64,000 nucleotides of DNA from Desulfuromonadales bacterium (GTDB taxonomy: Bacteria > Desulfobacterota > Desulfuromonadia > Desulfuromonadales > SZUA-540), in assembly GCA_033549025.1 (NCBI GenBank), contig JAWSUS010000002.1:32001-96000 (forward strand), read 5' to 3'. Below, piece by piece: positions 1-21,302 of the stretch. The notes beneath the pieces were generated by a model. It did no database searches. It was not told the DNA's origin and saw nothing but the letters and a program-made list of their open reading frames with translations. Both the position numbers and the translations under genes were made by a program. How positions within the stretch are numbered: the stretch's first letter is position 1; every line of letters starts with the position of its first letter.

Positions 1-483
1 GGTCGCCTCCGCCGCCACTTCGGCCCGGGCCGCGGCATAGTCGCTCTCGGCCAGGGCGACATCCGTACGCCCCAGGGCTTTGCGGCCCGCTCTTTTGCCG
101 CCCAGTTCCACCTGTTGACTGAGCATGAGGGTCGTTTCGGCCCGCTGCGTGCCGGAAAACTCGCCGCTGCCGGCGAAATCCTCCATCTCGATGGCGAGTT
201 CCGGGTTGGCCCACAACCCCGCCTGCCGCAGCTCTTGCTGCCGGACCTGAATTTCTTCCGAAAAGACCGCCAGGCGGGGATGGCTTTCCAAGGCCTTGGC
301 CACCGCCGTCGACAGGGTCAGCGCCGCGGCGACATCGGATTCAAGGCCGACGGTTTCCTGAATGGATCGTGGTGTCTGGCCGGAAGCCTGGACGGCGGCA
401 TCAGCCCCCCAGGCAATGGGGGCGATACCGATAAGGCCCAGCCCAAGCGCAGCACCGAAAGCAACCAGAGCCTTTTTGGGCAT
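1..483 (-). CDS. TolC/CzcC-family outer membrane efflux protein (5' part; runs off the window start)
   Basis: Manual translation from ATG 483 (SD GGAGG): signal peptide MPKKALVAFGAALGLGLIGIAPIAWG, then LTLSTAVAKALESHPRL, QAGLWANPEL and ETTLMLSQQVELGGKR, which are typical of CzcC-type factors. Not in the ORF track because it has no stop in the window. Confidence 0.85.
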   Translation of the reverse strand, partial: MPKKALVAFGAALGLGLIGIAPIAWGADAAVQASGQTPRSIQETVGLESDVAAALTLSTAVAKALESHPRLAVFSEEIQVRQQELRQAGLWANPELAIEMEDFAGSGEFSGTQRAETTLMLSQQVELGGKRAGRKALGRTDVALAESDYAAARAEVAAEAT

Positions 484-592
484 GGTTGAACCTCCGTATT
501 TTATTGTTGTTCTCACGATTTAAAGAAGGACGGACGAATCCCACAGGTTTCCTGGGAAACTGAGGGTACCGAGACTGAGCGGAAGGGGTGGT

Positions 593-1045
593 TTAATTCA
601 GGAGGACAACGGTACGATGAATGAGAATGGCCTGGCTGAGTCGAGGGGGTGGATGAGGCCACAGATCGTTGGTGAGTATCTGGACAAAAACGGGAGCGGC
701 AACAACGGATGCGGGCAGGGGAAGTTCGGCCGCGGTCAGATCATCCGACTGCTGCTGACGGGAGGAGGTCGCTTCAAGGGTGGCGGGAATATCCAGACAG
801 GGGCCACAATGGCTGTCCGAATCAAAATGGTTGGCCTCGTCTTCACGATGCTCGGCATGATGATCAGGGCCAGCCTGCAGCTGACGCTTTTCCGTACCGC
901 AGGCACTGGTGCCGGCATATTCCAGAGCGGCACGGCCATCCTTGCTCAGGCACCAGACATAGCCCTGCACACTGGTTTGCCCGGTCAGCAACAAGACCAG
1001 CAGGCAGACAATCGTCAGCAGATATCGGGAAGGAGACGTTTTCAT
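593..1045 (-). CDS. His/Cys-rich exported-type protein upstream of czcC (CzcI/DUF2946-like putative metal-sensing leader)
   Basis: N-terminal hydrophobic segment, His-rich tract (DHHAEH...NH...SH), CGPC motif, C-terminal WPHPPPR...RTVVLLN. Confidence 0.7.
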   Translation of the reverse strand: MKTSPSRYLLTIVCLLVLLLTGQTSVQGYVWCLSKDGRAALEYAGTSACGTEKRQLQAGPDHHAEHREDEANHFDSDSHCGPCLDIPATLEATSSRQQQSDDLTAAELPLPASVVAAPVFVQILTNDLWPHPPPRLSQAILIHRTVVLLN

Positions 1046-1170
1046 TAAATCGGATGATACCCGATGACCGGATTAAAATGCAACCGGCCAGCAAAGGATT
1101 TTATTCACCCCCTGCTTTTTTACGCTAAACTTGCAAGGCAAGTCATCATTACCGTATCGGAGGATTTGTC

Positions 1171-2088
1171 ATGAGCGATCTGATTTTTGAAGAGAGCCGC
1201 TGTAAAGAGCACCTTGAGCACCCCGGCGCCGCCATTCGTCTGCTGCTGGAGCCCAAAGACAAAGATCTCGGCGGCTTCAGCGTCCGCCGCCTGCTGCCGA
1301 CCGCCGATCTGCGCTCCGTCGGCCCCTTCATCTTTTTCGACCACCTGGGTCCGGCCGTTTTTGCTCCCGGCCAGGGCCTCGACGTGCGTCCCCACCCTCA
1401 CATCGGCCTGGCCACCATCACCACTGTCTTCGAGGGAGAGATCCTGCACCGCGACAGCCTCGGGCACGTGCAGCCCATCCGTCCCGACCAGATCAACTGG
1501 ATGACCGCCGGCAAGGGCATCGCCCATTCGGAGCGGACCCCGGCCGAGCTGCGCCGGCCGGGACACACCCTGCATCTTCTGCAGCTGTGGATTGCCCTGC
1601 CCGCAGCCGACGAAGAGACAGAGCCTTTTTTCACCCATTATGGTGAGGAAGCCCTGCCGGTGGTCGAGGACGGCAACACCCTGGTGCGGGTCCTGATCGG
1701 TGAAGCCTGCGGCGTCCGCTCGGCCGTCAAGACCCATTCATCGACCCTCTATCTGGACGTGAAGCTGGCCAAGGGAGAGCGCTTTACCCTTCCCGACGGG
1801 GTCGAAGAGCGTGCGGCCTACCTGATCGACGGGGAGGTTACCGTCGGCGGCTGCACCGTCCCCCCCCACCATCTCGCCGTGTTTGACCGCACCGCCGTCA
1901 TCGAGGTGACCGCCCACCAGGACAGTCATTTCGTGATCGTCGGCGGCGCCCCCCTGGGACGACGGACCATGTGGTGGAATCTCGTCGCCAGCCGCAAGGA
2001 GCTCATCGAAAAAGCCAAACAGGCCTGGCGGGACGGCTCCTTCCCTCAGGTGCCGGGCGAGACGGAGTTCATCCCCCTGCCCGAGTGA
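1171..2088 (+). CDS. Pirin family protein
   Basis: GPFIFFDH, PHPHIGLAT, WMTAGKGIAHSE and LQLWIALP motifs; SD GGAGG. Confidence 0.95.
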   Translation: MSDLIFEESRCKEHLEHPGAAIRLLLEPKDKDLGGFSVRRLLPTADLRSVGPFIFFDHLGPAVFAPGQGLDVRPHPHIGLATITTVFEGEILHRDSLGHVQPIRPDQINWMTAGKGIAHSERTPAELRRPGHTLHLLQLWIALPAADEETEPFFTHYGEEALPVVEDGNTLVRVLIGEACGVRSAVKTHSSTLYLDVKLAKGERFTLPDGVEERAAYLIDGEVTVGGCTVPPHHLAVFDRTAVIEVTAHQDSHFVIVGGAPLGRRTMWWNLVASRKELIEKAKQAWRDGSFPQVPGETEFIPLPE

Positions 2089-2103
2089 CGTCCCCATCTT
2101 TGT

Positions 2104-3270
2104 CTAGCCGGACAGGTCCTTCATGACCTGGTATAGATCGGCTTTCCCCTCGAAACCGATCCCGGGCAGGTCAGGCAGCACGATATGTCCTTTTTCGACC
2201 TGGACGCCATCGGGGAACCCTCCATAGGGTTGAAAGAGATCGGGGTAGGATTCGTTGCCTCCCAACCCCAAACCGGCCGCAATATTCAGAGACATCTGGT
2301 GCCCGCCGTGAGGAATGCAGCGGGATGGGGACCAGCCATAGCCTTTGAGCATCTCCAGCGTGCGCAAATACTCGACCAGACCATAGCTGAGGGCGCAGTC
2401 AAACTGCAGCCAGTCGCGGTCGGCGCGCATGCCGCCATAACGGATGAGATTGCGGGCATCCTGCATGGAGAACAGATTTTCACCGGTGGCCATGCTGCCC
2501 GGATAATGCTCGGCCAGCGCCGCCTGGATTTCATAGTCGAGAGGATCGCCGGCCTCTTCGTACCAGAAGAGATCATAGGGAGCCAGCGCCTTGGCGTATG
2601 CCACGGCGGTCTCCAGGTCAAAACGGCCGTTGGCGTCGACAGCCAGCCGCTCGCCGGATTTCAGGACGCCCAGCACGGCCTCGATACGCCGTAGATCTTC
2701 CGCCAAGGGAGCGCCGCCGATCTTCATCTTGACTACGGTGTAACCCCGCTCCGTATAACTGAGCATTTCCCGTTTCAGGGCTTCAAGATCCTTGCCGGGG
2801 TAATAGTATCCCCCCGCGGCATAGACGAATATCCTGGGGTCGGGTTCTCCGTTGCCATAGCGATCAGCGAGGAGGCGAAAAAGGGATTGGCCTTCGATTT
2901 TGGCCACGGCATCCCAAACGGCCATATCGATGGTTCCGACCGCTACCGACCGCTCCCCGTGGCCGCCCGGCTTTTCATTGGACATCATGCAATTCCAAAT
3001 CCGCTGCGGATCCAGGTTGTCCCGTTCCGGATCGAGCAGCGTCTTCGGATCGGCCTCCAGCAGCCGTGGCCGAAAGCGCTCCCTAATCAGACAGCCCTGG
3101 CCATAGCGGCCATTGGAATTGAAGCCGTAGCCGATAACGGGACGCCCATCGCGGATCACGTCCGTGACGACGGCCACCAGGCTCAGCGTCATTTTGCTGA
3201 AATCGATATAGGCATTGCGGATCGGGGAAGCAATCAGTTTCGTTTCTTCGCGGATATCGACAATCCTCAT
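2104..3270 (-). CDS. tarD: D(-)-tartrate dehydratase (enolase/mandelate racemase superfamily)
   Basis: Closely matches the recalled Bradyrhizobium TarD sequence: IRNAYIDF, GYGFNSNGRYGQG, NEKPGGHGERS, YAAGGYYYPGK, KMKIGG, VDANG, WYEE, ATGEN, IPHGGHQM. Confidence 0.9.
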   Translation of the reverse strand: MRIVDIREETKLIASPIRNAYIDFSKMTLSLVAVVTDVIRDGRPVIGYGFNSNGRYGQGCLIRERFRPRLLEADPKTLLDPERDNLDPQRIWNCMMSNEKPGGHGERSVAVGTIDMAVWDAVAKIEGQSLFRLLADRYGNGEPDPRIFVYAAGGYYYPGKDLEALKREMLSYTERGYTVVKMKIGGAPLAEDLRRIEAVLGVLKSGERLAVDANGRFDLETAVAYAKALAPYDLFWYEEAGDPLDYEIQAALAEHYPGSMATGENLFSMQDARNLIRYGGMRADRDWLQFDCALSYGLVEYLRTLEMLKGYGWSPSRCIPHGGHQMSLNIAAGLGLGGNESYPDLFQPYGGFPDGVQVEKGHIVLPDLPGIGFEGKADLYQVMKDLSG

Positions 3271-3334
3271 ACAAACCTCTCTCTTAAAATGCTTTCCATC
3301 CTGCCGTGGGCTGGCGCCAATGCGGAGCTCCCGT

Positions 3335-3853
3335 TCAGGCGCCCCCTCCAGCCCCCTGTGCCATTCTTTTCTTCATCATCGGTTTGATCCCGCCATGGCG
3401 CAGGATCTCGAGGGGATAGCCGGCAAGGGGCTGGGCCTGGAGGACGGCCCCGGACCGCCGGTTGACCACCTTGCCTGACTCGATATCGACTTCCAGGGTG
3501 TCTCCGTCTTTGACATGGCTGCTGATCTGCGGACAGACCAGCAAGGGGACGCCGAGGTTGATGGCGTTGCGGTAAAAGATGCGCCCGAAGGACTCGGCCA
3601 GAATGGCCCCCACCCCCACCGCCTTAAGCGTGATGGCGGCGTGCTCCCGACTCGACCCGCAGCCGAAGTTGGTGGCGGCCACAACCAGGTCGCCAGGCCG
3701 GAACTTCTGCACGAACTCAGGGTCGGCTCCCGCCATGGCATATCGGGCGATATCCTCTTCCCTGGTCAGCTCTACAAAGCGGCCGGGATAAATCTGGTCG
3801 GTGTCGATATTCTTGCCAAAGACGAACGCGCGCCCCGCTACCGTTGTTTTCAT
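3335..3853 (-). CDS. LeuD/DmdB-like Fe-S hydro-lyase small subunit
   Basis: GKNIDTDQIYP, NFGCGSSREHA, SFGRIFYRNAINLG; start moved to ATG 3853 (SD AAGGAGG). Confidence 0.9.
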   Translation of the reverse strand: MKTTVAGRAFVFGKNIDTDQIYPGRFVELTREEDIARYAMAGADPEFVQKFRPGDLVVAATNFGCGSSREHAAITLKAVGVGAILAESFGRIFYRNAINLGVPLLVCPQISSHVKDGDTLEVDIESGKVVNRRSGAVLQAQPLAGYPLEILRHGGIKPMMKKRMAQGAGGGA

Positions 3854-3866
3854 GCACGAGCCTCCT

Positions 3867-5120
3867 TCAGGGAAGATAGAGAGCAGGATCGACGATTTCG
3901 CCGGCAGCCGCGGCCGCGGCAACGGCTGCCGGCGAGGCCAGATAAATCTCCGCTTCGGTATGCCCCATCCTTCCCGGAAAATTACGGTTGGCCGAGGTAA
4001 TGCAGGTCTCGCCGGCCGTCAGCATCCCCTGATGGGTCCCCAGACAGGCGGCACACCCGGGCGTGACAAAGGTGGCACCCGCCTGCACCAGCGTCTGGAC
4101 ATAACCGAGCGCCATCGCTTCCAGCAGAACATCGCGGGAAGCGGGCACCACCAGAAAGCGCGTGCGGGGATGCACCTTGCGGCCGGCGAGAATACGGGCG
4201 GCCACTTCGATATCGGCCACACGCCCGCCGGTACAGGTCCCAAGATAGGCCTGATCGACTTTCTTCCCAAGGTACTGATGCAGCGCGAAAACGTTATCGA
4301 CGCTATGGGGCGCCGCGACCTGGGGAGTCAGCCCCGTAACATCGAAGTGGTGCTCGGCAGCATAGCGGTAGCCGGGGTCGCTCTCGACGATCTCCAGATG
4401 CGTGATCCCTTTTTCCAGAAAAAAATCCTTCGTTATCTCATCCGGCTGGATATAACAGGTCTTGGCCCCCATCTCGGTCGTCATGTTGCACAGCGCCATC
4501 CGTTCGGATACCGAGAGGGAGGCCAGCAGGGGTCCGGTAAACTCCACCGCCTGATAGACCCCGTAGTCGGCACCCAGCTGGCCGATGACATGCAGGATGA
4601 CATCTTTGGCGAACACGCCGGGAGACAAGGTCCCCTCCAGGTGAATCCGCATAATTTCAGGGACGCGAAACCAGAGCTCCCCCGTGAGGAGGATAATGGC
4701 CATGTCCGTGGCGCCCACCCCTGTGCCAAAGGCCCCGAAGGCGCCGTGGGTGGTCGTATGAGAATCGGTCACCACGACAATCTCGCCCGGCCGATTGAGG
4801 CCGTGGTCGGCAATCACCTGATGGCAGACCCCCTGATTGATGTCCATGAGTTTGTCGATTTGCTGCTCTTCGCAAAACTTTCTGAAGTTCCGGTGATTTT
4901 CCGCCTGAACGATCGTGGAGGCCGGGGCGTAATGATCAAAAAAAACAACGACTTTTTCCGGGGCGCGAACCTTCTTGCCCCCCATTTCCTCAAAAGACCG
5001 CACCGTCTGCAGATAGAGGTCGTTGATTCCGGCCAGGTCGACTCGACAGTTGACGATCTCGCCGGTGACGACAGCCTCTTTCCCTGCCGCACGGGCCAGT
5101 ATCTTCTCGATGGCGTGCAT
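3867..5120 (-). CDS. LeuC/DmdA-like aconitase-family hydro-lyase large subunit
   Basis: DH, GVCHQ and DSHTTTHGAFG motifs; [4Fe-4S] ligands GTCTGGR and PGCAACLG; NRNFPGRMG; start ATG 5120 (SD GAGGAG). Confidence 0.9.
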   Translation of the reverse strand: MHAIEKILARAAGKEAVVTGEIVNCRVDLAGINDLYLQTVRSFEEMGGKKVRAPEKVVVFFDHYAPASTIVQAENHRNFRKFCEEQQIDKLMDINQGVCHQVIADHGLNRPGEIVVVTDSHTTTHGAFGAFGTGVGATDMAIILLTGELWFRVPEIMRIHLEGTLSPGVFAKDVILHVIGQLGADYGVYQAVEFTGPLLASLSVSERMALCNMTTEMGAKTCYIQPDEITKDFFLEKGITHLEIVESDPGYRYAAEHHFDVTGLTPQVAAPHSVDNVFALHQYLGKKVDQAYLGTCTGGRVADIEVAARILAGRKVHPRTRFLVVPASRDVLLEAMALGYVQTLVQAGATFVTPGCAACLGTHQGMLTAGETCITSANRNFPGRMGHTEAEIYLASPAAVAAAAAAGEIVDPALYLP

Positions 5121-5155
5121 TCCGGGTTCTCCTCTTCGACAGTGGCGTGAACGCA

Positions 5156-6223
5156 TTAATCCTGCAGAGCCTGGCAGACGGCATCCGTCACTTCGACGGT
5201 AGTCGCCTGTCCTCCCAAATCGCGCGGCATGACGAGACCGGCGCTGGTTACCTTTTCAATCGCCTGCATCAGACGGTCAGCCGCCTGCTGCTCCCCCAGA
5301 TGTTCGAGCATCAGAACGGCGGTCCAGAAGGTCCCGAGGGGGTTGGCGATACCCTGTCCCATAATGTCAAAAGCGGAGCCATGGATCGGCTCGAACATGG
5401 AGGGGAAGGTCTTTTCCGGATTGAGATTGGCGGTCGGTCCGATCCCCAGACTGCCGGAGAGGGCGGCGGCCAGGTCCGAAAGGATATCGGCGTGCAGATT
5501 GGTGGCGACCATCACATCCAGGCTCTCGGGTTTGAGGACCATGCGGGTGGTGACGGCATCGACCAGCATCTTGTCGGTGGTGACATCCGGATAGTCTTTG
5601 GCGACTTCGGCAAAGATTTCATCCCACATGACCAGGCCGTGGCGCTGGGCGTTGGACTTGGTCACCAGAGTCAACAGCTTGCGTGGCCTCTTTCGGGCCA
5701 GATCAAAAGCGAACTTCATGATGCGACGGACGCCGGTGCGGGTGAACACGGCAACTTCCATTCCCACCTCTTCCGGCAAACCTCGGTGGGCCCGTCCCCC
5801 CACCCCGGAATATTCCCCCTCGCTGTTTTCACGCACAATGATCCAATCGAGTTCTTTGCCATCGCGACCCCGCAGGGGGCCGGATATACCCGGAAGAATA
5901 CGGGCCGGGCGGACATTGGCGTATTGGTCGAAACTCTGGCAGATGGCCAGACGCAGTCCCCACAGGGTAATGTGATCGGGAACGGTGGGATGTCCGACCG
6001 ACCCGAAGAATATGGCATCGAATTTCTTCAGGGTCTCCAGGCCGTCATCGGCCATCATCTTGCCATGCTCATGATAATAATCGCAGCCCCAGGGCAAGGT
6101 TTCGAAACTCATCTGGAAGGTGCCCTCCACCTGAGCCAAGGCCTGCAACACACGGATACCGGCAGGGATCACCTCTTTGCCGATGCCATCGGCTGGTATG
6201 GCCGCAATCTTGTACTCACGCAT
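5156..6223 (-). CDS. Tartrate dehydrogenase / D-malate dehydrogenase (decarboxylating), TtuC/DmlA family
   Basis: IPADGIGKEV, PDHITLWGL, DQYANVRP, RENSEGEY, TKSNAQRHG, SMFEPIHGSAFDI. Confidence 0.9.
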   Translation of the reverse strand: MREYKIAAIPADGIGKEVIPAGIRVLQALAQVEGTFQMSFETLPWGCDYYHEHGKMMADDGLETLKKFDAIFFGSVGHPTVPDHITLWGLRLAICQSFDQYANVRPARILPGISGPLRGRDGKELDWIIVRENSEGEYSGVGGRAHRGLPEEVGMEVAVFTRTGVRRIMKFAFDLARKRPRKLLTLVTKSNAQRHGLVMWDEIFAEVAKDYPDVTTDKMLVDAVTTRMVLKPESLDVMVATNLHADILSDLAAALSGSLGIGPTANLNPEKTFPSMFEPIHGSAFDIMGQGIANPLGTFWTAVLMLEHLGEQQAADRLMQAIEKVTSAGLVMPRDLGGQATTVEVTDAVCQALQD

Positions 6224-6369
6224 TTTTTTACTCCTGAAAGATGTATGAATTCTGGGGCAGGATGATTCTTTCCATCCCCCTTGCTTTCAGCTGCTGCCAG
6301 CTCCCCACCGTGGAGGCTGTTACCGCACTGCAGCAGCGTACATGGCCCTTACGATTTGGAATCGAGTCC

Positions 6370-6840
6370 TTATTCAAACCATTTGCCCGCTGGCAGGGGC
6401 ACTTTGAGCAGATGTTCGAAGACAAAAATCAGCAGAAAAGTCAGAGCCACAGCGATCACGGTGCTGAGCAGAATGTTCCGCCATGAGCCCCGATCTTCAC
6501 TGAGGAACCAGGAAATCCCGCCAAAACCGAGAATACCCGCCACGGCGAACCCCATATAACGCAGAAAGCCGCTCCAGATAAGCAGGACGATGGCCACCAC
6601 CAGCAGGTCGAACCACTGAAACGATGCGACGGCCTTTTTCTCCTCCTTCTCGTCCTTCATGGCGCGCCAGGGGGTGAAGGCCATTACAATGGTCAATACC
6701 ACCATCGCCGCCAGGCAGATCATCACGATATCCGGGAAGATACCGCCGAAAGGCGTCATGTAATCGCGCTGCACCCAGAGTACGGCAACGAAAATCAGCA
6801 TCAGGACAGAACCGAGCAGATCGCGAATCTTCGCACTCAT
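6370..6840 (-). CDS. tctB: Tripartite tricarboxylate transporter small membrane subunit (TctB family)
   Basis: 4-5 TM helices, GIFP motif, C-terminal FEHLLKVPLPAG; follows tctA. Confidence 0.85.
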   Translation of the reverse strand: MSAKIRDLLGSVLMLIFVAVLWVQRDYMTPFGGIFPDIVMICLAAMVVLTIVMAFTPWRAMKDEKEEKKAVASFQWFDLLVVAIVLLIWSGFLRYMGFAVAGILGFGGISWFLSEDRGSWRNILLSTVIAVALTFLLIFVFEHLLKVPLPAGKWFE

Positions 6841-6844
6841 AGGA

Positions 6845-8389
6845 TCAATCCTCCTCATCCACAACGTCGACAGGTTTCCCACCGGAAACTCTTCTCAGCA
6901 TCCGCTTCAGGTGACCGAAATAAGGCCACAGGAAGGAAAAAAGGCAGAGAACAATAAGGACCCACGACAGGGGATTGATGAACAGGGTCGTATAAGGCCA
7001 GGCATACCCCATGCCGGTAAGATAGGCCTGCACCAGCCCCTCTTCCATGATCGGCCCAAGGATGAGGCCAAGGACGATCGGGGCGCCGTGGAAGCCGAGG
7101 TAGCGAAGGGCAAATCCAATGAGGCCGAACAGCAGCATCAGAATAACGTCCGTATAGTTGTTCCGGATGGCATAGGAGCCGACGATAGTCAGAATCCCGA
7201 TTCCCGGCACCAGAAAGCGCGGCGGCAGGGTGGCGACAAAGCGGGTGAGAATCCGCCCGCCATAGAGCCCCACGGGAATCATGACGAGGGCGGAGAGCCC
7301 CAGGGCCAGCATGAAGGTATAGGTAATATCGGCCCGCTCGGCAAAGAGCTCTGGACCGGGCCGCAACCCCTGCAGCATCAGCACGCCATAAATGATGGCA
7401 TCCGGCGGTGCCCCCGGAATTCCCAGCGTGACCAGAGGGATGATTCCCCCACCGACGACGGCGTTGTTGGCCGTCTCCGTCGCGACCACCCCATCCACGA
7501 TTCCTGTCCCGAACTTTTCCGGCTCTTTGGAGGCCCGCCGCGCCTCATTGTAGGCGACCAGATTGGCGATGTTACCGCCGGCTCCCGGCAGAATCCCCAC
7601 CACCGTCCCGATGATGGAAGAACGGATCAGGTTGCCCGGCTTGGAAAAAACTTTTCGGGTGGTCGACCACAAGACCCCCTTTGAGCGCTTGTATTCCACC
7701 GCCTGATGGTTTTTGACCCCCTTGAGCACCATCATCAGCAATTCGGGGACGCAGAACAGGCCGATGAGCATGACTATCAGATTAAAACCACCCTGAAGGG
7801 CAGGCTCACCAAAGGTAAATCGAACGTCGCCCCCGATCGGCGCGATGCCGATGGTCGAAATCAACACCCCGAAGGCCGCCCCCGTCATCCCCTTGAGAAA
7901 AGAACCCGCCGCCAGACTTGAGATGATGGTCAATCCGAACACGCCCACCCAGAAATATTCGGCCGGCCCGAAACGCAGAGCCAGCTCGGCCAGGGGCGGA
8001 CTGAGAAAAATCAGGGCGACAACACCGACGATGCCGCCAAAGGCCGAACCAAGGGTCGCGCCGACAATCGCCTCTTCCCCGCGCCCCTGCCTGGCCATGG
8101 GATAGCCGTCAAAGGTGGTTCCTATGGAGCTGGGGGTGCCCGGCGTATTGATGAGAATGGCGCTAAAGGCCCCCCCATAAATGCATCCCATATAGATCGC
8201 ACCCAGGGTAACCAGGCCCGCCACCGCGCTCATGGTATAGGTAAAAGGCACCAGAAGGGCCACGGCCATGGTCGCGGTCAGTCCCGGCAGCGAACCGACC
8301 ACCATGCCCGCCACCGTTCCGGCCAGCACGAGGAGCAGGTTTTCAAAGGAAAGGACATGGGTCATACCCACGAGAAGATGTTCCAGCAC
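6845..8389 (-). CDS. tctA: Tripartite tricarboxylate transporter large membrane subunit (TctA)
   Basis: GSLPGL, YGGAFSAILINTPGTPSS, DGYPMARQGR, ETANNA, TLGIPG. Confidence 0.95.
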   Translation of the reverse strand: MLEHLLVGMTHVLSFENLLLVLAGTVAGMVVGSLPGLTATMAVALLVPFTYTMSAVAGLVTLGAIYMGCIYGGAFSAILINTPGTPSSIGTTFDGYPMARQGRGEEAIVGATLGSAFGGIVGVVALIFLSPPLAELALRFGPAEYFWVGVFGLTIISSLAAGSFLKGMTGAAFGVLISTIGIAPIGGDVRFTFGEPALQGGFNLIVMLIGLFCVPELLMMVLKGVKNHQAVEYKRSKGVLWSTTRKVFSKPGNLIRSSIIGTVVGILPGAGGNIANLVAYNEARRASKEPEKFGTGIVDGVVATETANNAVVGGGIIPLVTLGIPGAPPDAIIYGVLMLQGLRPGPELFAERADITYTFMLALGLSALVMIPVGLYGGRILTRFVATLPPRFLVPGIGILTIVGSYAIRNNYTDVILMLLFGLIGFALRYLGFHGAPIVLGLILGPIMEEGLVQAYLTGMGYAWPYTTLFINPLSWVLIVLCLFSFLWPYFGHLKRMLRRVSGGKPVDVVDEED

Positions 8390-8478
8390 AACCGACGCTC
8401 CTTTCAGAAAGTGGTTATGACCGGGCGGCTACCAGGGAGGCAGCCACCCGGCGAAGACCGACGAAGCAATCCAGCAAA

Positions 8479-9444
8479 CTACTTCTTCAACATGCCCAAT
8501 TCACCCAGGAGCGCTTCGTATTCAACCATCTTTTCCTTGATAAAGGCTTCTGATTCCGCAGGTCCCATCGTTTCTTTTTTGAAGCCGTTTTCGTTCATTT
8601 TCTTGATAACTTCCGGCTCTTCCATCACCTTGGCAAAGGACTCGGCGATGTACTGAATCCGGTCGTCAGGCGTTCCGGGAGGGGCCGCCACCCCACGGTA
8701 GGCGCCTTCGACGATGTCGTAGCCCAGCTCTTTAAAGGTGGGTACGTCCGGGAGAATAGCCATGCGCTCTTCCGTCATAATGGCCAGCGGCCGGAATTTG
8801 TCCTGGTACTGCACCGCCATGGTCGAATAGGTCATGAGCGAGCCGACATGGCCGCCAAGAAGAGCAGGCGTCGCCGCCCCGGAGCCGGTGAAGGGGATAT
8901 AGGTGATTTTGATGCCGGCGGCCTTGTTGAGCAGCTGAACGCCCAGTTCGTTGGCGGAACTGCTGCCGCTGCCGCCAGCCGTCACGACGTTGGGATGCTC
9001 TTTGGCATAGTCAATGAAATCCTTCAATGTCTTGAAGGGGCTGTCCTTTCTTACGACCAGGATATTGGGGGTGCTCTGGAAGAAACAGATCGGTTTCAGG
9101 TCCAGTGTTTGGTAGCCGGCATTGCCGCGGGTGAGAGGCTGGAGAACGATGTGGGGGAGATTGTTACCGGCGATGGTATAGCCGTCAGGCTTGCTCTGGA
9201 TGAGCTCCGACCAGCCTACCGAGCCGCCGCCGCCGATCTTGTAGGAAATGACCACACCGTCGGGAAAATACTTTTTCAGAGGAGCTTCCTGAATGCGCGC
9301 AGTTATGTCCGACTCGCCTCCCGGGTTAAAGCAGAGGATGTAATTGAGGGGCTTTTCAGGAAACTTTTCTGCGCGCGCATACATCGGCGACAGAGCCAGT
9401 GTCGTGACCAGGGCCAGGAAAATGCCAATCTTCAGTCCTTTCAT
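8479..9444 (-). CDS. tctC: Tripartite tricarboxylate transporter substrate-binding protein (TctC/Bug)
   Basis: Signal peptide ending ARA; FPEKP, PGGESDITAR, GGGGSVG, PDGYT, IPFTGSG, PDVPTFKELG; start ATG 9444. Confidence 0.92.
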   Translation of the reverse strand: MKGLKIGIFLALVTTLALSPMYARAEKFPEKPLNYILCFNPGGESDITARIQEAPLKKYFPDGVVISYKIGGGGSVGWSELIQSKPDGYTIAGNNLPHIVLQPLTRGNAGYQTLDLKPICFFQSTPNILVVRKDSPFKTLKDFIDYAKEHPNVVTAGGSGSSSANELGVQLLNKAAGIKITYIPFTGSGAATPALLGGHVGSLMTYSTMAVQYQDKFRPLAIMTEERMAILPDVPTFKELGYDIVEGAYRGVAAPPGTPDDRIQYIAESFAKVMEEPEVIKKMNENGFKKETMGPAESEAFIKEKMVEYEALLGELGMLKK

Positions 9445-9594
9445 CCCTTTTCTCCTTTTCGTTGCAGGCCAATAAAAAATGCGGGCAGCACATGCTTCCC
9501 AGCACAGACATCTGTGAGAAGTTCTATCCCCTATCATCTCCCGGTGGATCGGGCCCGTTCCAAACTCTCAACATCTCCTGCAGAAGACACAGAT

Positions 9595-9610
9595 AGCGAC
9601 TTCCGTGCCA
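9595..9610 (-). promoter_or_regulatory. sigma54 (-24/-12) promoter of the tctC operon
   Basis: Minus strand TGGCACGGAAGTCGCT (GG-N10-GC); adjacent to a divergent sigma54 activator gene. Confidence 0.75.
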
Positions 9611-9719
9611 AAATAAAAAGCCTTGCGATATCGGATACTTAAAAATTCAATGTTTCAAGTTGTTTGACAGTGTCGCAGAATCGCTTCATTATGTTTCAAA
9701 TTGTCGCAAGGAGGCTCCC

Positions 9720-11579
9720 GTGTCCAAAATCGCCTGCATTCTGCCCGATGGTCGCCTGCTGGAAGGCGCACGAAATGTTTACAGGGACTGTTTCAGCGAG
9801 ATCCGAATCGAGAAAGGACTTCTGCAGGAAGCGGTGGAAGTGGCCATGGCGTTAGCCAGAGAGGATTATGAGGTCTTTATAAGTCGTGGCAGGACAGCGG
9901 CCATCATTCGGGAGGCGGGACTGGAGGCGTCCGTGGTGGAAATCCCGATCACGGCGATAGACGTCATCCAGACCATTGAACGGGCCAAGTTCCAGGGGAA
10001 GCACATCGGGGTGGTGGCCTTTGCCCCCATGATTCCAGGCATCGATTATCTCGGAACCATTCTGGGCGGCGGCATTCGCTTCTATCCCCTCGAACATGAA
10101 TCCAAGGTGGAAGAACTCGTGATCAGAGCCATCGGGGACAAGGCCGATGTCATTGTGGGAGGCGCGATTACGGGCAAGGTCGCCAAGAAACACGGGCTCC
10201 CCTTCGCCCTTATCGAAAACAGCCCGGAAAGCATGCTGCAGGCGGCCCAGGAAGCCCGAAACATCGCCTTTGCCCGCAAACAGGAGAAAGCCAGGGGGAA
10301 TCTCTTCAAAGCGGTCCTCGACTACGCCTATGACGGCATTATCTCCATCAATCGCGAAGGGAAGGTCACGTCCTTCAATCCCGTCGCCGAAAGGATGCTG
10401 CACATAAGTGAAGCCAACGCTCTCGGCCGCCCCATACGCCACATCTGGCCCGAGATCGAGTTGGAAGCCGTGCTGGACAATGCCCAGGAGGATCTCGGCC
10501 AACTGGCGAAGATCAACGACCACTACCTGGTCTGCAACAAGGCCCCCATTTGCGTCAACGGGAATGTCGTGGGAGCGGTGGCCACCTTTCAGGAAGCCAG
10601 CCACATCCAGCAGATGGAAGCAAAGGTACGTCGCCGCCTCTTTGCCTCCGGGCATCGGGCCACCTTCTGCTTCGACGATATCGTCGGCACCAGCGCCATC
10701 CTGAAAAAGCACATGGCCCTGGCCCGGGATTTCGCCAAAACCGACTCTTCGATCCTGATTCAGGGCGAAACCGGCACCGGCAAGGAGGTCTTTGCCCAGA
10801 GCATCCACAACTTCAGCAGTCGCCAGCAGGGCCCTTTCGTGGCCCTCAACTGTGCCGCCCTGCCGGCGCACATTCTCGAAAGCGAACTGTTCGGCTACGT
10901 CAGCGGGGCCTTTACCGGCGCCAGCAGCAAAGGGAAGCCCGGCCTTTTTGAAATAGCACACGGAGGAACCCTTTTTCTGGATGAAATCGCCGAGATGGAA
11001 TATGCCACCCAGGGAAAGCTGCTCCGTGTCCTGCAGGAAAAAAAGGTCATGCGTCTGGGCAGCGACAAAGTCACTCCTGTCAATGTGCGCATCATCGCGG
11101 CAACCAATCAGAACCTCAAAAGCCTGGTGAATGACAACAAGTTTCGGGCCGATCTTTACTACCGCCTGAACGTCCTGCAGTTGAGGCTCTTTCCTTTACG
11201 GGAAAGAAAGGAAGACATTCTTGCCCTCAGCCAGTTTTTTCTCGACAAGCACTCCCTGGCCTCCGGCCGCAAACTGACCTTAACCCCCAGAGCACTTCAA
11301 GCGTTGACAGAATACGGTTGGGCCGGAAATGTGCGCGAACTGCAGAACATTCTGGAAAGAATCCTCGCCACCCTCAAACAGGCGAAAATCGATGCCGACA
11401 TCGTTGGGCAGCACCTGGAGGATCATCATGAGCCGGAAATCCGTGCCCAGATTCTGCAGGACGAATGGGAGGAGATCAGGCGGGCCCTGGCCGAAGCCAG
11501 GGGCAAGCATGCGGAAGCAGCCAAAATACTGGGCATCAGCCGCTCAACGCTGTGGCGGAAGCTCAAAAAGATGCCCTGA
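9720..11579 (+). CDS. PrpR-like sigma54-dependent activator (PrpR_N, PAS, AAA+, Fis-HTH)
   Basis: ISRGRTA, GETGTGKE, ESELFGY, GAFTGA, TLFLDEI, FRADLYYRL, LGISRSTLWRKL; GTG start with SD AAGGAGG. Confidence 0.92.
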   Translation: MSKIACILPDGRLLEGARNVYRDCFSEIRIEKGLLQEAVEVAMALAREDYEVFISRGRTAAIIREAGLEASVVEIPITAIDVIQTIERAKFQGKHIGVVAFAPMIPGIDYLGTILGGGIRFYPLEHESKVEELVIRAIGDKADVIVGGAITGKVAKKHGLPFALIENSPESMLQAAQEARNIAFARKQEKARGNLFKAVLDYAYDGIISINREGKVTSFNPVAERMLHISEANALGRPIRHIWPEIELEAVLDNAQEDLGQLAKINDHYLVCNKAPICVNGNVVGAVATFQEASHIQQMEAKVRRRLFASGHRATFCFDDIVGTSAILKKHMALARDFAKTDSSILIQGETGTGKEVFAQSIHNFSSRQQGPFVALNCAALPAHILESELFGYVSGAFTGASSKGKPGLFEIAHGGTLFLDEIAEMEYATQGKLLRVLQEKKVMRLGSDKVTPVNVRIIAATNQNLKSLVNDNKFRADLYYRLNVLQLRLFPLRERKEDILALSQFFLDKHSLASGRKLTLTPRALQALTEYGWAGNVRELQNILERILATLKQAKIDADIVGQHLEDHHEPEIRAQILQDEWEEIRRALAEARGKHAEAAKILGISRSTLWRKLKKMP

Positions 11580-11696
11580 CCCCGACAAGCCCTGGACCCC
11601 GTCGCAATAATTAGCGTCAGGTTGCTTGCGGACCCACCATCTATTGATAAAGTCAAGACATGGGGGAAAGGGCAGCAAAAAAGAAAGGGGCCCTAA

Positions 11697-11936
11697 ATGA
11701 AAAAGATGCTGGGAATAACTTTTCTTTCGCTCCTTCTGGCAGCCTGCGCAGGTCAGGGAGAAATGGAGAGAGCAAAAGCCCTGTATGACAAGTATGACGC
11801 CCACTGCCGAGCGCACGCCAAGGAGGTGTCCGCCGAAATGGACGTGGAAGCACGATACCATGAGTGCATGAACTACTTCATTGGAACAGATCCACTATGT
11901 CCCTACTGCAAAGTCGATCACCACATGAAGCACTAG
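11697..11936 (+). CDS. Small lipoprotein with Cys/His motifs, function unknown
   Basis: Lipobox LAAC; HC, HEC, CPYC and a C-terminal DHHMKH. Confidence 0.7.
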   Translation: MKKMLGITFLSLLLAACAGQGEMERAKALYDKYDAHCRAHAKEVSAEMDVEARYHECMNYFIGTDPLCPYCKVDHHMKH

Positions 11937-12012
11937 ATTGGTCTCTGCCCTTTCCCCAGAGCACCAACAGCAAACGACCTTACTCCGCCTGTCCACTGAA
12001 TTTGCCTTTCCT

Positions 12013-12576
12013 TTAGCCCTCCATCAGCAGAATGGCCTCGGCGACCTCCTTGAGGCTCTTGCGCTTGTCCATGGCGATCTTCTGCAACTTGCGGTAAGCC
12101 TCGGCCTCGCTCATCCCCTTGGCCATAAGTACGCCCTTGGCCTTGTCCACCTGTTTGCGCGTCTCCAAGGTTTCCTTGAGCTTATGCACCTCGTCCTTGA
12201 GGGTGGACACTTCCACAAAATGGTGAATGGCCAGATCGACGGCGGCATAGACCTGTTCAGCCCGCAGGGGTTTGAGGACATAATTCATGACCCCGGCCCG
12301 GCGGGCGCGCTCGATCGTCGCGACATCGGCGGTAGCCGTCAGCAGCACCACCGGGATCGACCGAATCTTGCCTATTCTTTCGGCAGCCGTGATGCCATCC
12401 ATAACGGGCATGGACACATCCATCACGATGAGGAGGGGATTTTTTACCCGGGCCAGGTCGAGGGCCTGACTGCCGTTTTCCGCCTCGACAATCTCATCAA
12501 AGCCGTAGTCGGCCAGAATTTCCGCCACCTGGCGACGCAGCATCGGTTCGTCATCAACGACCAGAGCACATTTCAT
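12013..12576 (-). CDS. gnfR: REC-ANTAR RNA-binding antiterminator (GnfR-like nitrogen-fixation regulator)
   Basis: Receiver domain (VVDDE, MDVSMPVMDG, LKP) plus ANTAR (RKQVDKAKGVLM...SEAEAYRKLQKIAMDKR); located in the nif region. Confidence 0.85.
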   Translation of the reverse strand: MKCALVVDDEPMLRRQVAEILADYGFDEIVEAENGSQALDLARVKNPLLIVMDVSMPVMDGITAAERIGKIRSIPVVLLTATADVATIERARRAGVMNYVLKPLRAEQVYAAVDLAIHHFVEVSTLKDEVHKLKETLETRKQVDKAKGVLMAKGMSEAEAYRKLQKIAMDKRKSLKEVAEAILLMEG

Positions 12577-12622
12577 AAGCGTGGCACCTCCTTGGGAATT
12601 GCTTTTCCGTTAATCTTTCAAC

Positions 12623-12638
12623 TGCATTAACAATGCCT
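12623..12638 (-). promoter_or_regulatory. sigma54 promoter of the ANTAR regulator gene
   Basis: Minus strand AGGCATTGTTAATGCA (GG-N10-GC). Confidence 0.65.
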
Positions 12639-12642
12639 AAAT

Positions 12643-13461
12643 CTACCCCAGACTCCCCAGGCTGGCCAGAGAAACAAGATGGCGGCTCAATTCAGCGGGG
12701 CGTTCCCCCTTGACCATAAGAGCTGTTGAGCCACAAGGACGAAAACCGGCCCGGCTGAACAGGGGCGACAGGCCACTTTCGACCAGAAGATCGGTATAGA
12801 GCGGAGCGGTAGTATTGACCGCGTCCAGAGCCAGCCGCAGGAGCCGGCCGTTTTCCTCCAGGCAACGGCTGGCCGAATACCAGGGCCCCAGAATCTGCAT
12901 ATCTTCACCCTCCTGCACATGGAGACAGGAGAGGCCGGCAGCAAAAGTCTGGCCCCGCTCCGACAGGAAGGACAGCAGAGGACTGCGGGCTTCCTCCCAG
13001 GCCAGGGCGTCAAGCTGGCACAGCGCCTCGCGGCCATCGTAGTCAAAGGGCGGGAGGCCATCCCGCCTGGGCTCCGGGTCGTGCCGCCAGCGCTCGATCG
13101 TGCCGATGGAGCGGAATCCGCGCTTCTCATAGAGGGGCCGGCCCAGCTCAGAGGCGGTCAGGATTATAGACGCTGAACCGCGCCGCTCCAGGTGTCCAAC
13201 GGCAAAGTCGAACAACCTGCCCCCGGTGCCCTTGCCTCTTTCTTCCGGGGCCAGAATGAGGTTCCCTATCCAGCCGCTGCGAGGATGAGCCACCGTGGTG
13301 ACGAAACCTCGGCAGACGCCCCCCTCAAGCAGGGCGAAGGCGCCGCCGCGCAGAGGACCGGCAAACAGGTCGATTTCGAGGCGGGGGACCTGCCAGCCTT
13401 CCTCCTTGGCCAGTGTCAGAAAAACCCGCCAATCGCTGGTGGTGGCGGAGCGGATCTCCAT
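12643..13461 (-). CDS. GNAT family N-acetyltransferase (tandem-GNAT type)
   Basis: WIGNLILAPEERGKGTG acetyl-CoA motif and LTASELGRPLYEKRGF; start ATG 13461 directly after the nifV stop. Confidence 0.85.
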   Translation of the reverse strand: MEIRSATTSDWRVFLTLAKEEGWQVPRLEIDLFAGPLRGGAFALLEGGVCRGFVTTVAHPRSGWIGNLILAPEERGKGTGGRLFDFAVGHLERRGSASIILTASELGRPLYEKRGFRSIGTIERWRHDPEPRRDGLPPFDYDGREALCQLDALAWEEARSPLLSFLSERGQTFAAGLSCLHVQEGEDMQILGPWYSASRCLEENGRLLRLALDAVNTTAPLYTDLLVESGLSPLFSRAGFRPCGSTALMVKGERPAELSRHLVSLASLGSLG

Positions 13462-13462
13462 T

Positions 13463-14611
13463 TCAGGCCACGGCCTGGCACGAGGGCCAGAGAGAAAGCA
13501 GCTCATGGTCGCTCAAGGGACGTTTGCGCTGCTGGCTCAGGCGGCGAACACTGGGCAGCAGGCTGTCCGCCTGCTGCCGCGTGGCACGGATGCCCAACTC
13601 CTGCAGGCGGTGAACGAGACCCTGACTCCCCGAATGCTTGCCGAGGACCAGGTAGCGTGACAGTCCCACCTCAGCCGGATCGAAGCCCTCATAGTTGCAG
13701 GGATTTTTAATGACGCCGTCGGCGTGGAGCCCTGATTCATGGGAGAAGACCCGCTCACCGACCACGGCCTTCCATTCCGGTACGGGACGATGGCTGGCCT
13801 GCCCGACAAACCGGCTGATCTCCACAAAACGGCGGGTGTCCATGTGCAGATCGATGCCGTTGGCGTGCTTGAGGGCCATGACCACCTCTTCCAGGGCGGC
13901 ATTGCCGGCGCGTTCGCCAAGCCCGTTCACCGTGGTGTTGACGAAGCGGGCGCCGGCCCGGATCCCGGCCAGAGCGTTGGCCGTGGCCATACCGAGATCA
14001 TTATGGGTATGGATCTCGAGATCAAGGTCGACCCGGTCCCGCAGGAACCGGATTTTCTCGTAGGTGGAGAACGGGTCGAGAAGACCCAGCGTATCGCAGA
14101 AACGGAAGCGGTCCGCCCCCATGGCGCGGCCGATCTCCATCAGTTCGACAACAAAGTCAAGGTCGGCCCGGCTGGCATCTTCGCCGCCGATGGACACATA
14201 CAGGCCATGCTCCTTGGCGAAACCCAGGGCCGTCTTCAGCTGTTCTTTCACCCAGTCGCGACTTTTGCCCAACTTGTGCCGGATGTGGATATCGGACACG
14301 GACAGGGACAGATCAACGGCCTGCACCCCGGTGGCCAATGAGGCCTCGATGTCGCTGATCAGGGCACGGTTCCAGGTGATCAGGCGGGCGCCAAGACCAA
14401 GGTCGACCAAGGCTCTCACGTCGGCCTGCTCTTCTTTCCCCATGGCGGGAATGCCGCACTCCAGCTCTCCCACGCCGATTTCATCCAGCATGCGGGCGAT
14501 GCGAATTTTCTCCTGCCGCGAGAAGACCACCCCGGCGGTCTGTTCCCCGTCGCGCAGCGTGGTGTCGTCGATGATGACCTCTCTGTGCTGGATATCCGTT
14601 TCAACCGTCAT
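13463..14611 (-). CDS. nifV: Homocitrate synthase
   Basis: DTTLRDGEQTAGV, GGEDASRAD, HTHNDLGMATAN, GLGERAGN, HESGLHADG, LGKHSG. Confidence 0.95.
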   Translation of the reverse strand: MTVETDIQHREVIIDDTTLRDGEQTAGVVFSRQEKIRIARMLDEIGVGELECGIPAMGKEEQADVRALVDLGLGARLITWNRALISDIEASLATGVQAVDLSLSVSDIHIRHKLGKSRDWVKEQLKTALGFAKEHGLYVSIGGEDASRADLDFVVELMEIGRAMGADRFRFCDTLGLLDPFSTYEKIRFLRDRVDLDLEIHTHNDLGMATANALAGIRAGARFVNTTVNGLGERAGNAALEEVVMALKHANGIDLHMDTRRFVEISRFVGQASHRPVPEWKAVVGERVFSHESGLHADGVIKNPCNYEGFDPAEVGLSRYLVLGKHSGSQGLVHRLQELGIRATRQQADSLLPSVRRLSQQRKRPLSDHELLSLWPSCQAVA

Positions 14612-14628
14612 GGCCGGCTCCTTCCCAC

Positions 14629-14696
14629 AAAAAAAGCCCCGGGAAGCCTGTGGCCCTCCCGGGGCGTCGTTGCCCGTTTCCAGCGTCCTCGCTGGA
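14629..14696 (-). promoter_or_regulatory. ANTAR twin-hairpin plus intrinsic terminator in the nifV leader
   Basis: P1 TCCAGC-GAGGAC-GCTGGA; P2 GGC-AACGAC-GCC overlapping the terminator GCCCCGGGA...TCCCGGGGC-T7. Confidence 0.85.
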
Positions 14697-14718
14697 GAGT
14701 GAGTTCACCATAGTGCTA

Positions 14719-14734
14719 AGCACAGGCTGTGCCA
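14719..14734 (-). promoter_or_regulatory. sigma54 promoter of nifV
   Basis: Minus strand TGGCACAGCCTGTGCT. Confidence 0.8.
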
Positions 14735-14917
14735 TAAACGAATCCGAGTCTAAAAGTCCCTGAGCCGGCCAGCACGGGGAAAAGGTCCCTGATGAAAAGC
14801 GTCCTCCTCGCCTTAAGTGATCAAAAAAGAGGCAGCTGAAACGCCGGGTGCCATTGAATCAATCGGGTCGACTTAAAGAATGGGGGTCATTTCAGGCCGC
14901 AGGGGACCCTTCCGAGC

Positions 14918-14933
14918 TGGCCGAAGTCTTGCA
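14918..14933 (+). promoter_or_regulatory. sigma54 promoter of nifE-nifN
   Basis: TGGCCGAAGTCTTGCA (GG-N10-GC). Confidence 0.75.
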
Positions 14934-15061
14934 GAGGTTTTTCAGCATAGCGCTGTCAAGCGCCTTGCCCGCCAAGGCTGACGTGGCAGAAAAGTTCCAT
15001 CTCAACGAGGCGACGGGACTGATTTTAATCTGAAATCGCTGCTTTCAGAAAGGATCAGACT

Positions 15062-17688: not shown

Positions 17689-17734
17689 GCGGGAAAAGCG
17701 GAACACACCCATACTGTTTAGTGGCAGTCTGCCG

Positions 17735-19482: not shown

Positions 19483-19496
19483 CGGATCCTCTCCGG

Positions 19497-20246: not shown

Positions 20247-20256
20247 GCTACCTCCT

Positions 20257-21132: not shown

Positions 21133-21157
21133 AACGGGTCTCCTTGGCTGGGGACGC

Positions 21158-21277: not shown

Positions 21278-21302
21278 TGTAAATTGATTTAATCCATAGA
21301 AT

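Follow-up and report, generated by a model that had tools for sequence, protein, structure and literature searches.

A sigma-54-controlled accessory tartrate operon in a Desulfuromonadales bacterium with a candidate meso-tartrate dehydratase of the aconitase type

Which substrates are served by an operon that combines a tripartite tricarboxylate transporter with a tartrate dehydrogenase, a D-tartrate dehydratase and a pair of proteins resembling the two subunits of isopropylmalate isomerase? We analyzed this question for a stretch of 64,000 nucleotides (hereafter, the window) from a Desulfuromonadales bacterium (assembly GCA_033549025.1, contig JAWSUS010000002.1, positions 32,001 to 96,000). 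An earlier note on this DNA had described a tctCAB-tartrate dehydrogenase-leuC/leuD-like-tarD transcription unit behind a -24/-12 promoter, with a divergent gene for a PrpR-like activator, and all of these genes, as well as the promoter site and the activator, are present where it had placed them. The locus is a real, accessory, sigma-54-controlled tartrate operon. Its TarD, its dehydrogenase, its Tct transporter and its type of activator all belong to known families. The role of the LeuC/LeuD-like (LeuCD) pair is less obvious. We cautiously favor a three-isomer operon in which LeuCD would act as a meso-tartrate dehydratase giving oxaloacetate.

Evidence for tartrate from kin loci

We searched 200 genomes of the order for LeuC, the dehydrogenase and TarD, and found a close LeuC relative in two genomes, the dehydrogenase in seven and TarD in six. 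The G181 genome (locus L100) has genes for the activator, TctCAB, the dehydrogenase, LeuC, TarD, TtdA and TtdB, and in G221 and G170 the genes for the dehydrogenase, TarD, TtdA and TtdB stand in a row. The locus of G179 (L110) includes ttdAB, tctCAB and two dehydrogenases, and that of G096 (L111) the activator, tctCAB and two dehydrogenases. In G017, tarD is alone within 20 kb, and tctAB and a dehydrogenase are located on another contig. All four TtdA proteins scanned exceed the cut-off of the L(+)-tartrate dehydratase equivalog (510-519 bits versus 365), and the one TtdB scanned exceeds its own L(+)-tartrate dehydratase cut-off. The tandem dehydrogenases of L110 and L111 are about 50% and 89-90% identical to that of the window; the second of the tandem has an internal TGA in G179, and only its residues 1-314 were matched in G096.

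TctA, TctB and TctC are encoded together in one cluster of the window, as is typical of a tripartite tricarboxylate transporter. TctA is 83-87% identical to TctA of the kin tartrate loci, TctC is 77-81% identical to TctC in L100, L110 and L111, and the activator shares 69-71% identity with those of L100 and L111. Since kin loci with the same Tct/PrpR module hold TarD, TtdAB and tartrate dehydrogenases, the whole operon very probably serves tartrate, not maleate or D-malate. Tartrate is likewise the presumed ligand of TctC, for which the solved structures gave no clue, the PDB matches being distant only.

The suggestion of the earlier note that several stereoisomers are used under one transporter and regulator is supported by these loci, which indicate tartrate, with maleate keeping a place as a possible substrate of LeuCD. 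The note had left the choice between tartrate and maleate/D-malate undecided and had assigned no role to LeuCD. Within the order the gene combination is not unique: G181 shows the same gene order, with a decayed leuC and without leuD. No remnant of leuC was detected by tblastn in the 334-base gap of G221.

Enzymes for D- and L-tartrate

By strong homology, the tarD product is predicted to be a D-tartrate dehydratase giving oxaloacetate. It aligns over its full length (residues 1-386; E 2.8e-204, 681.8 bits) with Bll6730 (PDB 2DW7/2DW6/1TZZ), which we take to be the Bradyrhizobium D-tartrate dehydratase TarD, and the next-best family follows at E 3.5e-24 and 88.8 bits. K181, K183, D212, E238, E264 and H321 are identical in the alignment; these residues presumably provide the KxK base, the Asp/Glu/Glu metal ligands and the His acid.

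The dehydrogenase scores 569.5 bits with TIGR02089, over the cut-off of 470.4, and 471.2 bits with NF006048, under the cut-off of 501. Members of this family oxidize and decarboxylate L-tartrate towards glycerate and are also active on D-malate. The window enzyme is 73.4% identical to an enzyme of the Allorhizobium plasmid pAtS4c, the gene of which sits in a cluster encoding LysR, an MFS carrier, the dehydrogenase, glycerate kinase and pyruvate kinase. According to an excerpt of bioRxiv 10.1101/2020.12.19.423612, pAtS4c is the plasmid said to bear a tartrate system, tartrate use being an accessory trait. Both enzymes share the motifs WGLRLxICQxFDQY and NLHADILSD; the substrate helix of the P. 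putida type (LLxxRR) is missing from the window enzyme, which reads LRLAICQ at this place, and in the alignment with 3flk its C95 and R91 correspond to Arg and Leu, respectively. Because of the closeness to the enzyme of the tartrate plasmid and the variant helix LRLxICQ found in both, we assign the dehydrogenase to L-tartrate with moderate confidence.

The LeuCD-like pair

The LeuC-like protein scores 527.9 bits with NF001614 (cut-off 385) and exceeds the cut-off of TIGR02086, and its best PDB matches are 4nqy and 4kp1. It has the three [4Fe-4S] cysteines (C296, C356 and C359), the DH, DSH and NRNFPGR motifs and a subfamily motif, GINDLY. The LeuD-like protein scores 188.8 bits with TIGR02087 (cut-off 108.95) and has an intact GSSRE motif. 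Thus the pair carries all the hallmarks of a two-subunit aconitase-type hydro-lyase, namely the Fe-S cysteines, DSH, NRNFxGR and GSSRE. The specificity loop of LeuD, DTDQIYPGRFVEL, has E28 at the specificity position, where homoaconitase (2pkp) has Arg and the isomerase (3vba) has Val.

A separate leuC-leuD-leuB cluster is located on contig C24 of the same genome. The LeuC-like protein falls under the LEU2 and HacA_Meth equivalog cut-offs, and scores for both subunits are below those expected of isopropylmalate isomerase (TIGR02083, 414.3 versus 610.65; TIGR02084, 158.8 versus 245.85) and of homoaconitase HacAB (NF040615, 408.9 versus 550; NF040604, 158.7 versus 230), with Glu in the loop instead of the residue characteristic of either enzyme. 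The separate leuCDB cluster and the scores under the equivalog cut-offs indicate that the pair is not for leucine. Databases do name close homologues '3-isopropylmalate/(R)-2-methylmalate dehydratase', and Tct systems are named after tricarboxylates, so that one could think of a second biosynthetic isomerase for isopropylmalate or citramalate, or of an aconitase or homoaconitase for tricarboxylates imported by Tct. We consider this highly improbable given the housekeeping cluster, the scores (below the LEU2, leuD, HacA and HacB equivalogs alike), the Glu residue, and the location of the pair in an accessory block with an activator of the catabolic type.

A genome scan revealed 313 relatives, of which the best 80 (62-75% identical), mostly from anaerobes, were examined together with their neighborhoods (the 80 loci). 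The loop of the small subunit sets the substrate preference, according to an excerpt of PMC7308503. Its specificity position is acidic in 64 of 72 LeuD proteins of the loci and in all 120 closest homologues. Among 100 representatives of the family that fall outside the QI[YCF]P class, by contrast, just 5 have an acidic residue there. Loops with Ala or Thr make up 7 of the 72. These counts leave aside 34 of 150 family representatives and 7 of 79 locus open reading frames (ORFs), mostly wrong-frame ones, in which the loop pattern is absent. The large subunit bears a corresponding signature, ND(L) within a GINDLY-like motif. Judged by these signatures, the window pair belongs to a distinct subfamily of anaerobes with an acidic loop residue, and this residue would speak for a substrate that has neither an alkyl group nor a third carboxylate.

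In the phylogenetic tree, the window LeuC groups with those of L012 and L100 (FastTree local support 0.991). Locus L012 has the order PrpR/tctCAB/leuC/leuD/ttdA/ttdB, and its 9-kb contig encodes neither a dehydrogenase nor a racemase; the more distant L036 contains leuCD, an OadA-like gene and a TarD at 74%. LeuCD accompanies L- or D-tartrate enzymes in four loci, that is, in the window and in L012, L100 and L036, as an enzyme for the third isomer would be expected to do.

A candidate route for meso-tartrate

Aconitase-type enzymes remove water in anti fashion from a (2R)-hydroxy acid and give a product with cis carboxylates. A geometric check indicated that anti-elimination leads to cis carboxylates only from (2R,3S)/(2S,3R) tartrate, the (2R,3S) form mapping onto (2R,3S)-3-alkylmalate, whereas L- and D-tartrate yield the trans product, as for fumarase-fold enzymes. 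Meso-tartrate, being the sole tartrate with the geometry for an aconitase-type anti-elimination, is therefore the candidate substrate of LeuCD. In the accessible portions of two reports, the fumarases of E. coli are inactive on meso-tartrate (PMC4682846), and meso-tartrate competitively inhibits both the class I fumarase of M. jannaschii and E. coli TtdAB (bioRxiv 10.1101/2023.06.17.545066), so that fumarase-type enzymes leave this isomer uncovered.

We propose that a ligand, probably tartrate, would activate the PrpR-like protein, leading to sigma-54-dependent transcription of tctCAB and the enzyme genes, and that TctCAB, to judge from its context, would bring in tartrate. TarD would then convert D-(2S,3S)-tartrate to oxaloacetate, and the TtuC-type dehydrogenase would oxidize and decarboxylate L-(2R,3R)-tartrate towards glycerate, probably acting on D-malate as well. 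The [4Fe-4S] hydro-lyase LeuCD may take meso-(2R,3S)-tartrate through an anti-elimination to the cis enol (hydroxymaleate), which would tautomerize to oxaloacetate. The alignment suggests that E28 could face the 3-hydroxyl, at a place where isopropylmalate isomerase has a hydrophobic residue. Removal of meso-tartrate may also lift the inhibition of fumarase-type dehydratases. Enzymes encoded outside the block would pass the products on to central metabolism; those of the genome include a member of the malate dehydrogenase family, two malic enzymes and a MOFRL-type glycerate kinase (contig C5). The operon had been called self-contained, which is overstated, as neither oxaloacetate nor glycerate has an enzyme within the block, which leans on genes elsewhere.

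Neighborhoods of related LeuCD pairs

The same activator is a neighbor in 26 of the 80 loci, and the transporters and sensors are mostly of the C4-dicarboxylate/citrate type (DASS carriers in 18 loci, TctA in 16, 2HCT carriers in nine and MalK/DcuS-type sensors in five). OadA-like genes recur, malic enzyme is found in 11 loci and two-subunit fumarases in five. An oxaloacetate-handling gene (OadA-like, malic enzyme or malate dehydrogenase) adjoins 18 loci, 16 of which have no racemase or dehydrogenase in the locus. Genomes were searched for 10 of the 11 malic-enzyme loci, and none of the 10 contains a tartrate/D-malate dehydrogenase over the cut-off; three of them have no LarA match and three have weak ones only, and in five there is neither a strong LarA match nor any dehydrogenase-family match. 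D-malate would be a dead end in those genomes that have no consumer for it.

Several observations weigh against meso-tartrate as the substrate. A bona fide tartrate dehydratase adjoins leuCD in only 2 of the 80 loci, 35 loci have no carboxylate transporter among the clusters tallied, and 18 have a LarA-like racemase (13) or a tartrate/D-malate dehydrogenase (5), equally fitting a conversion of maleate to D-malate. The genomes with malic-enzyme loci are mostly metagenome assemblies of unstated completeness, and of the D-2-hydroxyacid dehydrogenases the search in them covered the tartrate/D-malate family, so that the absences may be apparent only. L-malate, too, is a substrate of malic enzymes. 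Support for the overall LeuD clade is weak (0.48), and no beta subunit of a Na+-pumping decarboxylase was found in the window's genome. Furthermore, G181 retains the tartrate operon though its leuC (L100:8427-9689), still a full-length frame, no longer has the serine of DSH or either arginine of NRNFPGR and the locus has no leuD; this copy shows that leuCD was once part of this operon type, yet dispensable. Meso-tartrate is itself a substrate of the P. putida-type tartrate dehydrogenase; such an activity could make LeuCD redundant, and leuCD is perhaps dispensable in G181 since its P. putida-type dehydrogenase handles this isomer. Finally, in excerpts of the literature, the racemase LarAH62 epimerizes tartrate, but prefers malate about 60- to 180-fold (PMC11770544), and the closest characterized LeuC, that of M. 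jannaschii, hydrates maleate (PMC8307300).

The maleate activity of the M. jannaschii enzyme is also an argument for a mixed operon, in which TarD and the dehydrogenase would serve tartrate and LeuCD would be a hydratase of maleate (or citraconate). The resulting D-malate (or methylmalate) would be oxidatively decarboxylated by the adjoining dehydrogenase, the gene of which is directly upstream of leuC and whose KEGG family includes D-malate dehydrogenase (PMC8307300, in part), or racemized by LarA-type enzymes elsewhere. LarA-like neighbors in the 13 loci come near the malate racemase models, under the cut-off (449.8 and 497.1 versus 500), and the two-subunit fumarases, together with a fumarate reductase flavoprotein in L058, suit a route from D-malate via L-malate to fumarate. 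We nevertheless hold this alternative to be unlikely: no maleate-producing pathway was seen beside the 80 loci among the recurring clusters and 68 further neighbors scanned, the LeuC proteins closest to that of the window are encoded with TtdAB, the 9-kb contig of L012 offers no enzyme for D-malate, and in 16 loci the oxaloacetate-handling gene comes without a D-malate consumer. Moreover, the conserved acidic loop residue would be unneeded if C3 bears hydrogen only. LeuCD probably accepts both meso-tartrate and D-malate, since D-malate is meso-tartrate minus one hydroxyl.

With regard to racemases, a LarA-like gene (L091:4179-5447) is located beside GlcD/GlcF-like oxidase genes on contig C34 of the window's genome; it passes no subfamily cut-off and was not counted as a malate racemase.

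The varied neighbors also leave room for another polar, cis-eliminating hydroxy acid (an aldarate, an acid of the erythronate/threonate type or a substituted malate), with a mixed subfamily and the window copy as a passenger, which seems to us more doubtful still than a maleate hydratase. An enolase resembling talarate/galactarate dehydratase (under the cut-off) occurs in 6 of the 80 loci, citrate-lyase-like subunits in five and 2-hydroxyacid reductases in seven; 11 loci have a hydrolase similar to fluoroacetate dehalogenases, and four have a type II haloacid dehalogenase. The Ala/Thr loop variants and the decaying G181 copy fit such a mixture. The window copy, on the other hand, is undamaged and has kept every catalytic motif, the intact copy most closely related to it (L012) likewise belongs to a tartrate operon, and the transporters and sensors named above are mostly of the C4-dicarboxylate/citrate type.

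Some of these neighbors deserve separate description. The alpha/beta hydrolase adjoining leuCD in 11 loci (e.g., L047:7146-8069) has fluoroacetate dehalogenases as its best matches. It and the type II haloacid dehalogenase of four loci may be trans- and cis-epoxysuccinate hydrolases making meso- and L-tartrate, respectively. About 30% identity is shared by cis-epoxysuccinate hydrolase and L-2-haloacid dehalogenase (PMC6429283, excerpt), and nothing on a trans-epoxysuccinate hydrolase was found in the accessible portions of PMC10138715 and PMC6429283. The enolase-family protein follows leuD in L022, L061, L066, L071, L076 and L080, sometimes preceding a tartrate dehydrogenase; it scores 325 bits with the model of L-talarate/galactarate dehydratase (cut-off 500) and is a candidate tartrate epimerase or second dehydratase. 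In L068, L072, L077 and L083, the leuCD subfamily occurs within citrate-lyase-like clusters (alpha subunit over the citF cut-off, beta under the citE cut-off) with a malic-enzyme-family gene and/or a 2HCT carrier.

Operon organization, promoter and activator

The features of the locus are listed in Table 1. The gaps between the minus-strand genes, from tctC to tarD, are 89, 4, 146, 35, 13 and 64 bases, and a purine-rich ribosome-binding stretch precedes every start on this strand; the seven genes are predicted to form a single transcript.

Table 1. Predicted genes and regulatory sites of the tartrate operon in the window.
Feature	Position	Strand or placement	Basis
tctC, periplasmic binding protein	8479-9444	-	PF03401
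tctA, large membrane subunit	6845-8389	-	PF01970, 473 bits
tctB, small membrane subunit of tripartite tricarboxylate transporter	6370-6840	-	PF07331
Tartrate dehydrogenase/decarboxylase, Allorhizobium (TtuC) type	5156-6223	-	TIGR02089
LeuC-like large subunit, aconitase-type hydro-lyase	3867-5120	-	NF001614
LeuD-like small subunit, aconitase-type hydro-lyase	3335-3853	-	TIGR02087
tarD, enolase-superfamily D-tartrate dehydratase	2104-3270	-	Best PDB match Bll6730 (2dw7)
PrpR-like sigma-54 activator	9720-11579	+	PrpR_N, PAS, sigma-54 AAA, HTH_8
Sigma-54 -24/-12 promoter TGGCACGGAAGTCGCT	9595-9610	-	Pattern match and conservation
Two TGAAACA hexamer-type sites, candidate activator-binding	9651-9698	Upstream of promoter	Read from intergenic sequence
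Lipoprotein-like ORF, 79 aa	11697-11936	+	Right end of block; translation

The -24/-12 search pattern was composed after the site had already been seen; it has one match in the whole window, yet 9 of 100 shuffled sequences also yield one. The site is weak alone and is supported by its conservation across homologous loci: a -24/-12 site occurs within 450 bases of the divergent PrpR-like gene in 23 of 24 such loci, compared with 4.7% of random 450-base stretches of the same loci (n=2000). The TGAAAC hexamer is present in 20 of 25 upstream regions, a raw count without background control in regions that are AT-rich.

The activator has all the features of the PrpR type, i.e., the PrpR_N-PAS-AAA-HTH architecture, GAFTGA in the AAA+ domain and an adjoining -24/-12 site. 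It scores below the PrpR equivalog (355.7 versus a cut-off of 499.2), as well as below the cut-off of the PrdR equivalog, and no prp genes adjoin it. In two loci of Anaerospora (L008:9999-11084 and L015:9777-10943), a fusion of the PrpR_N sensor with an MCP signalling domain directly follows leuD, which suggests chemotaxis towards the same ligand as the activator would sense.

Other regulatory elements were looked for in the window. The terminator scan returned 15 candidates versus 10.8 +/- 2.9 in shuffled sequences, i.e., not beyond chance, and the scan for sigma-70 promoters stayed at the chance level. A 5' leader attenuator at 9440-9585 was ruled out by its folding z-score of 0.93.

Five sediment metatranscriptome runs from two studies contain 7-32% of the block's words. 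We rejected this signal as evidence of transcription: in the four runs whose contigs were aligned to the window, the depth is low and equally flat over the operon genes, the promoter gap and the flanks, a pattern as DNA carry-over would give. The runs show only that near-identical DNA exists in sediments. One metatranscriptome contig (1887-2134) spans the junction of tarD with the pirin gene (1171-2088, plus strand), which converges on it.

Accessory block and surrounding DNA

The operon is part of a 9.9-kb block (2089-12012) between the pirin gene, which ends at 2088, and a gene for an ANTAR response regulator, which ends near 12013. The block is missing from two genomes of the same genus (G001 and G002), which match window positions 1-2088 and 12017-16000 at 85-98%, with both parts only 22 bases apart. 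No direct repeats of at least 7 bases were found at the block ends, and no mobile genes were seen; the GC content of the block, 57.7%, compares with 61% for its flanks and 58.0% for the whole genome. Since end repeats are absent and the GC content equals the genome mean, gain of the block here and its loss in G001 and G002 look alike and cannot be told apart.

The small ORF at the right end of the block is Cys- and His-rich, has no Pfam match and is probably a passenger. A contig of metatranscriptome run X1 joins 11580 to 11963 without this ORF, and a diverged copy of it is the deepest contig (depth 69) in run X3.

To the left of the block, a His/Cys-rich small protein without a family match (593-1045, minus strand) is encoded upstream of a gene, identified by eye at the left edge of the window, that resembles heavy-metal-efflux outer-membrane proteins. 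To the right, positions 12013-31987 are devoted to nitrogen fixation (ANTAR regulator, homocitrate synthase, NifE/N-like and NifD/K/H-like proteins, a molybdate ABC transporter and DraG/DraT). This region is ordinary, and its left part is conserved in the genomes of the same genus.

Comparison with known systems

The genes for dehydration of L- and D-tartrate are known, and bacterial dehydration of meso-tartrate was recorded as an activity in the 1950s. Our literature search, with most subscription journals outside it, found no gene assigned to meso-tartrate dehydration and no link between LeuCD and tartrate. The operon supplies a specific two-gene candidate for this enzyme. Extended to the whole LeuCD subfamily with the DTDQIYPGRxx[DE] and GINDLY motifs, annotated as isopropylmalate dehydratase, the assignment is tentative. 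This subfamily is widespread in Negativicutes, including gut Veillonella, Clostridia, Desulfovibrionaceae and other deltaproteobacteria.

If meso-tartrate is indeed the substrate, LeuCD would add a third fold to the two that dehydrate tartrate, those of fumarase (TtdAB, DtuAB) and enolase (TarD), and the operon would be a complete tartrate pathway with one enzyme per stereoisomer. The aconitase superfamily would gain a specificity, and many genes of anaerobes labelled as leucine biosynthesis would be corrected. The alpha/beta hydrolase of 11 loci could then be a trans-epoxysuccinate hydrolase feeding this pathway, and 'unnatural' tartrate isomers would be frequent enough in sediments and guts to select dedicated pathways. 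If LeuCD is a maleate hydratase, the locus would be a well-supported but ordinary new catabolic arrangement.

Among the known systems, Bll6730 resembles the window TarD over the full length, with the same catalytic and metal-binding positions; the window protein differs in its location beside a LeuCD-like pair in a sigma-54/Tct operon of the anaerobe type. The TAR system of Allorhizobium vitis/ampelinum (ttuABCDE, pAtS4c) has the dehydrogenase as its sole part in common with the window: TAR uses LysR, an MFS carrier, glycerate kinase and pyruvate kinase, whereas the operon of the window combines PrpR/sigma-54 control with TctCAB, TarD and LeuCD and lacks a kinase. The ttdAB genes of E. coli and Salmonella (L-tartrate) and dtuAB of Salmonella (D-tartrate) likewise support stereospecific dehydration to oxaloacetate, and ttdAB is present in kin loci; however, these are fumarase-fold enzymes in separate one-isomer loci, and ttdAB is absent from the window. 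According to an excerpt of bioRxiv 10.1101/2023.12.08.570695, E. coli and Salmonella dehydrate tartrate anaerobically to oxaloacetate by stereospecific enzymes, and Salmonella Typhimurium did not ferment meso-tartrate in that study.

The isopropylmalate/citramalate isomerase (4KP1/4NQY, 3VBA) and homoaconitase (4KP2, 2PKP) of M. jannaschii are of the same two-subunit type as the window pair, with the same cluster ligands and GSSRE. Their loops read YLVY or YLRT and their motif VHDIT, in contrast to FVEL and GINDLY in the window, where the pair occurs in a catabolic, inducible context and the housekeeping leuCD is elsewhere. Maleate hydratase HbzIJ and dimethylmaleate hydratase DmdAB, from the gentisate and nicotinate pathways, are catabolic LeuCD-like hydro-lyases that act on cis-dicarboxylates. 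They are likened to the window pair by description only, and no genes of either pathway were seen near the window locus or the 80 loci. To these systems the window adds the context of a tartrate operon, the placement of the nearest LeuC relatives and the loop statistics.

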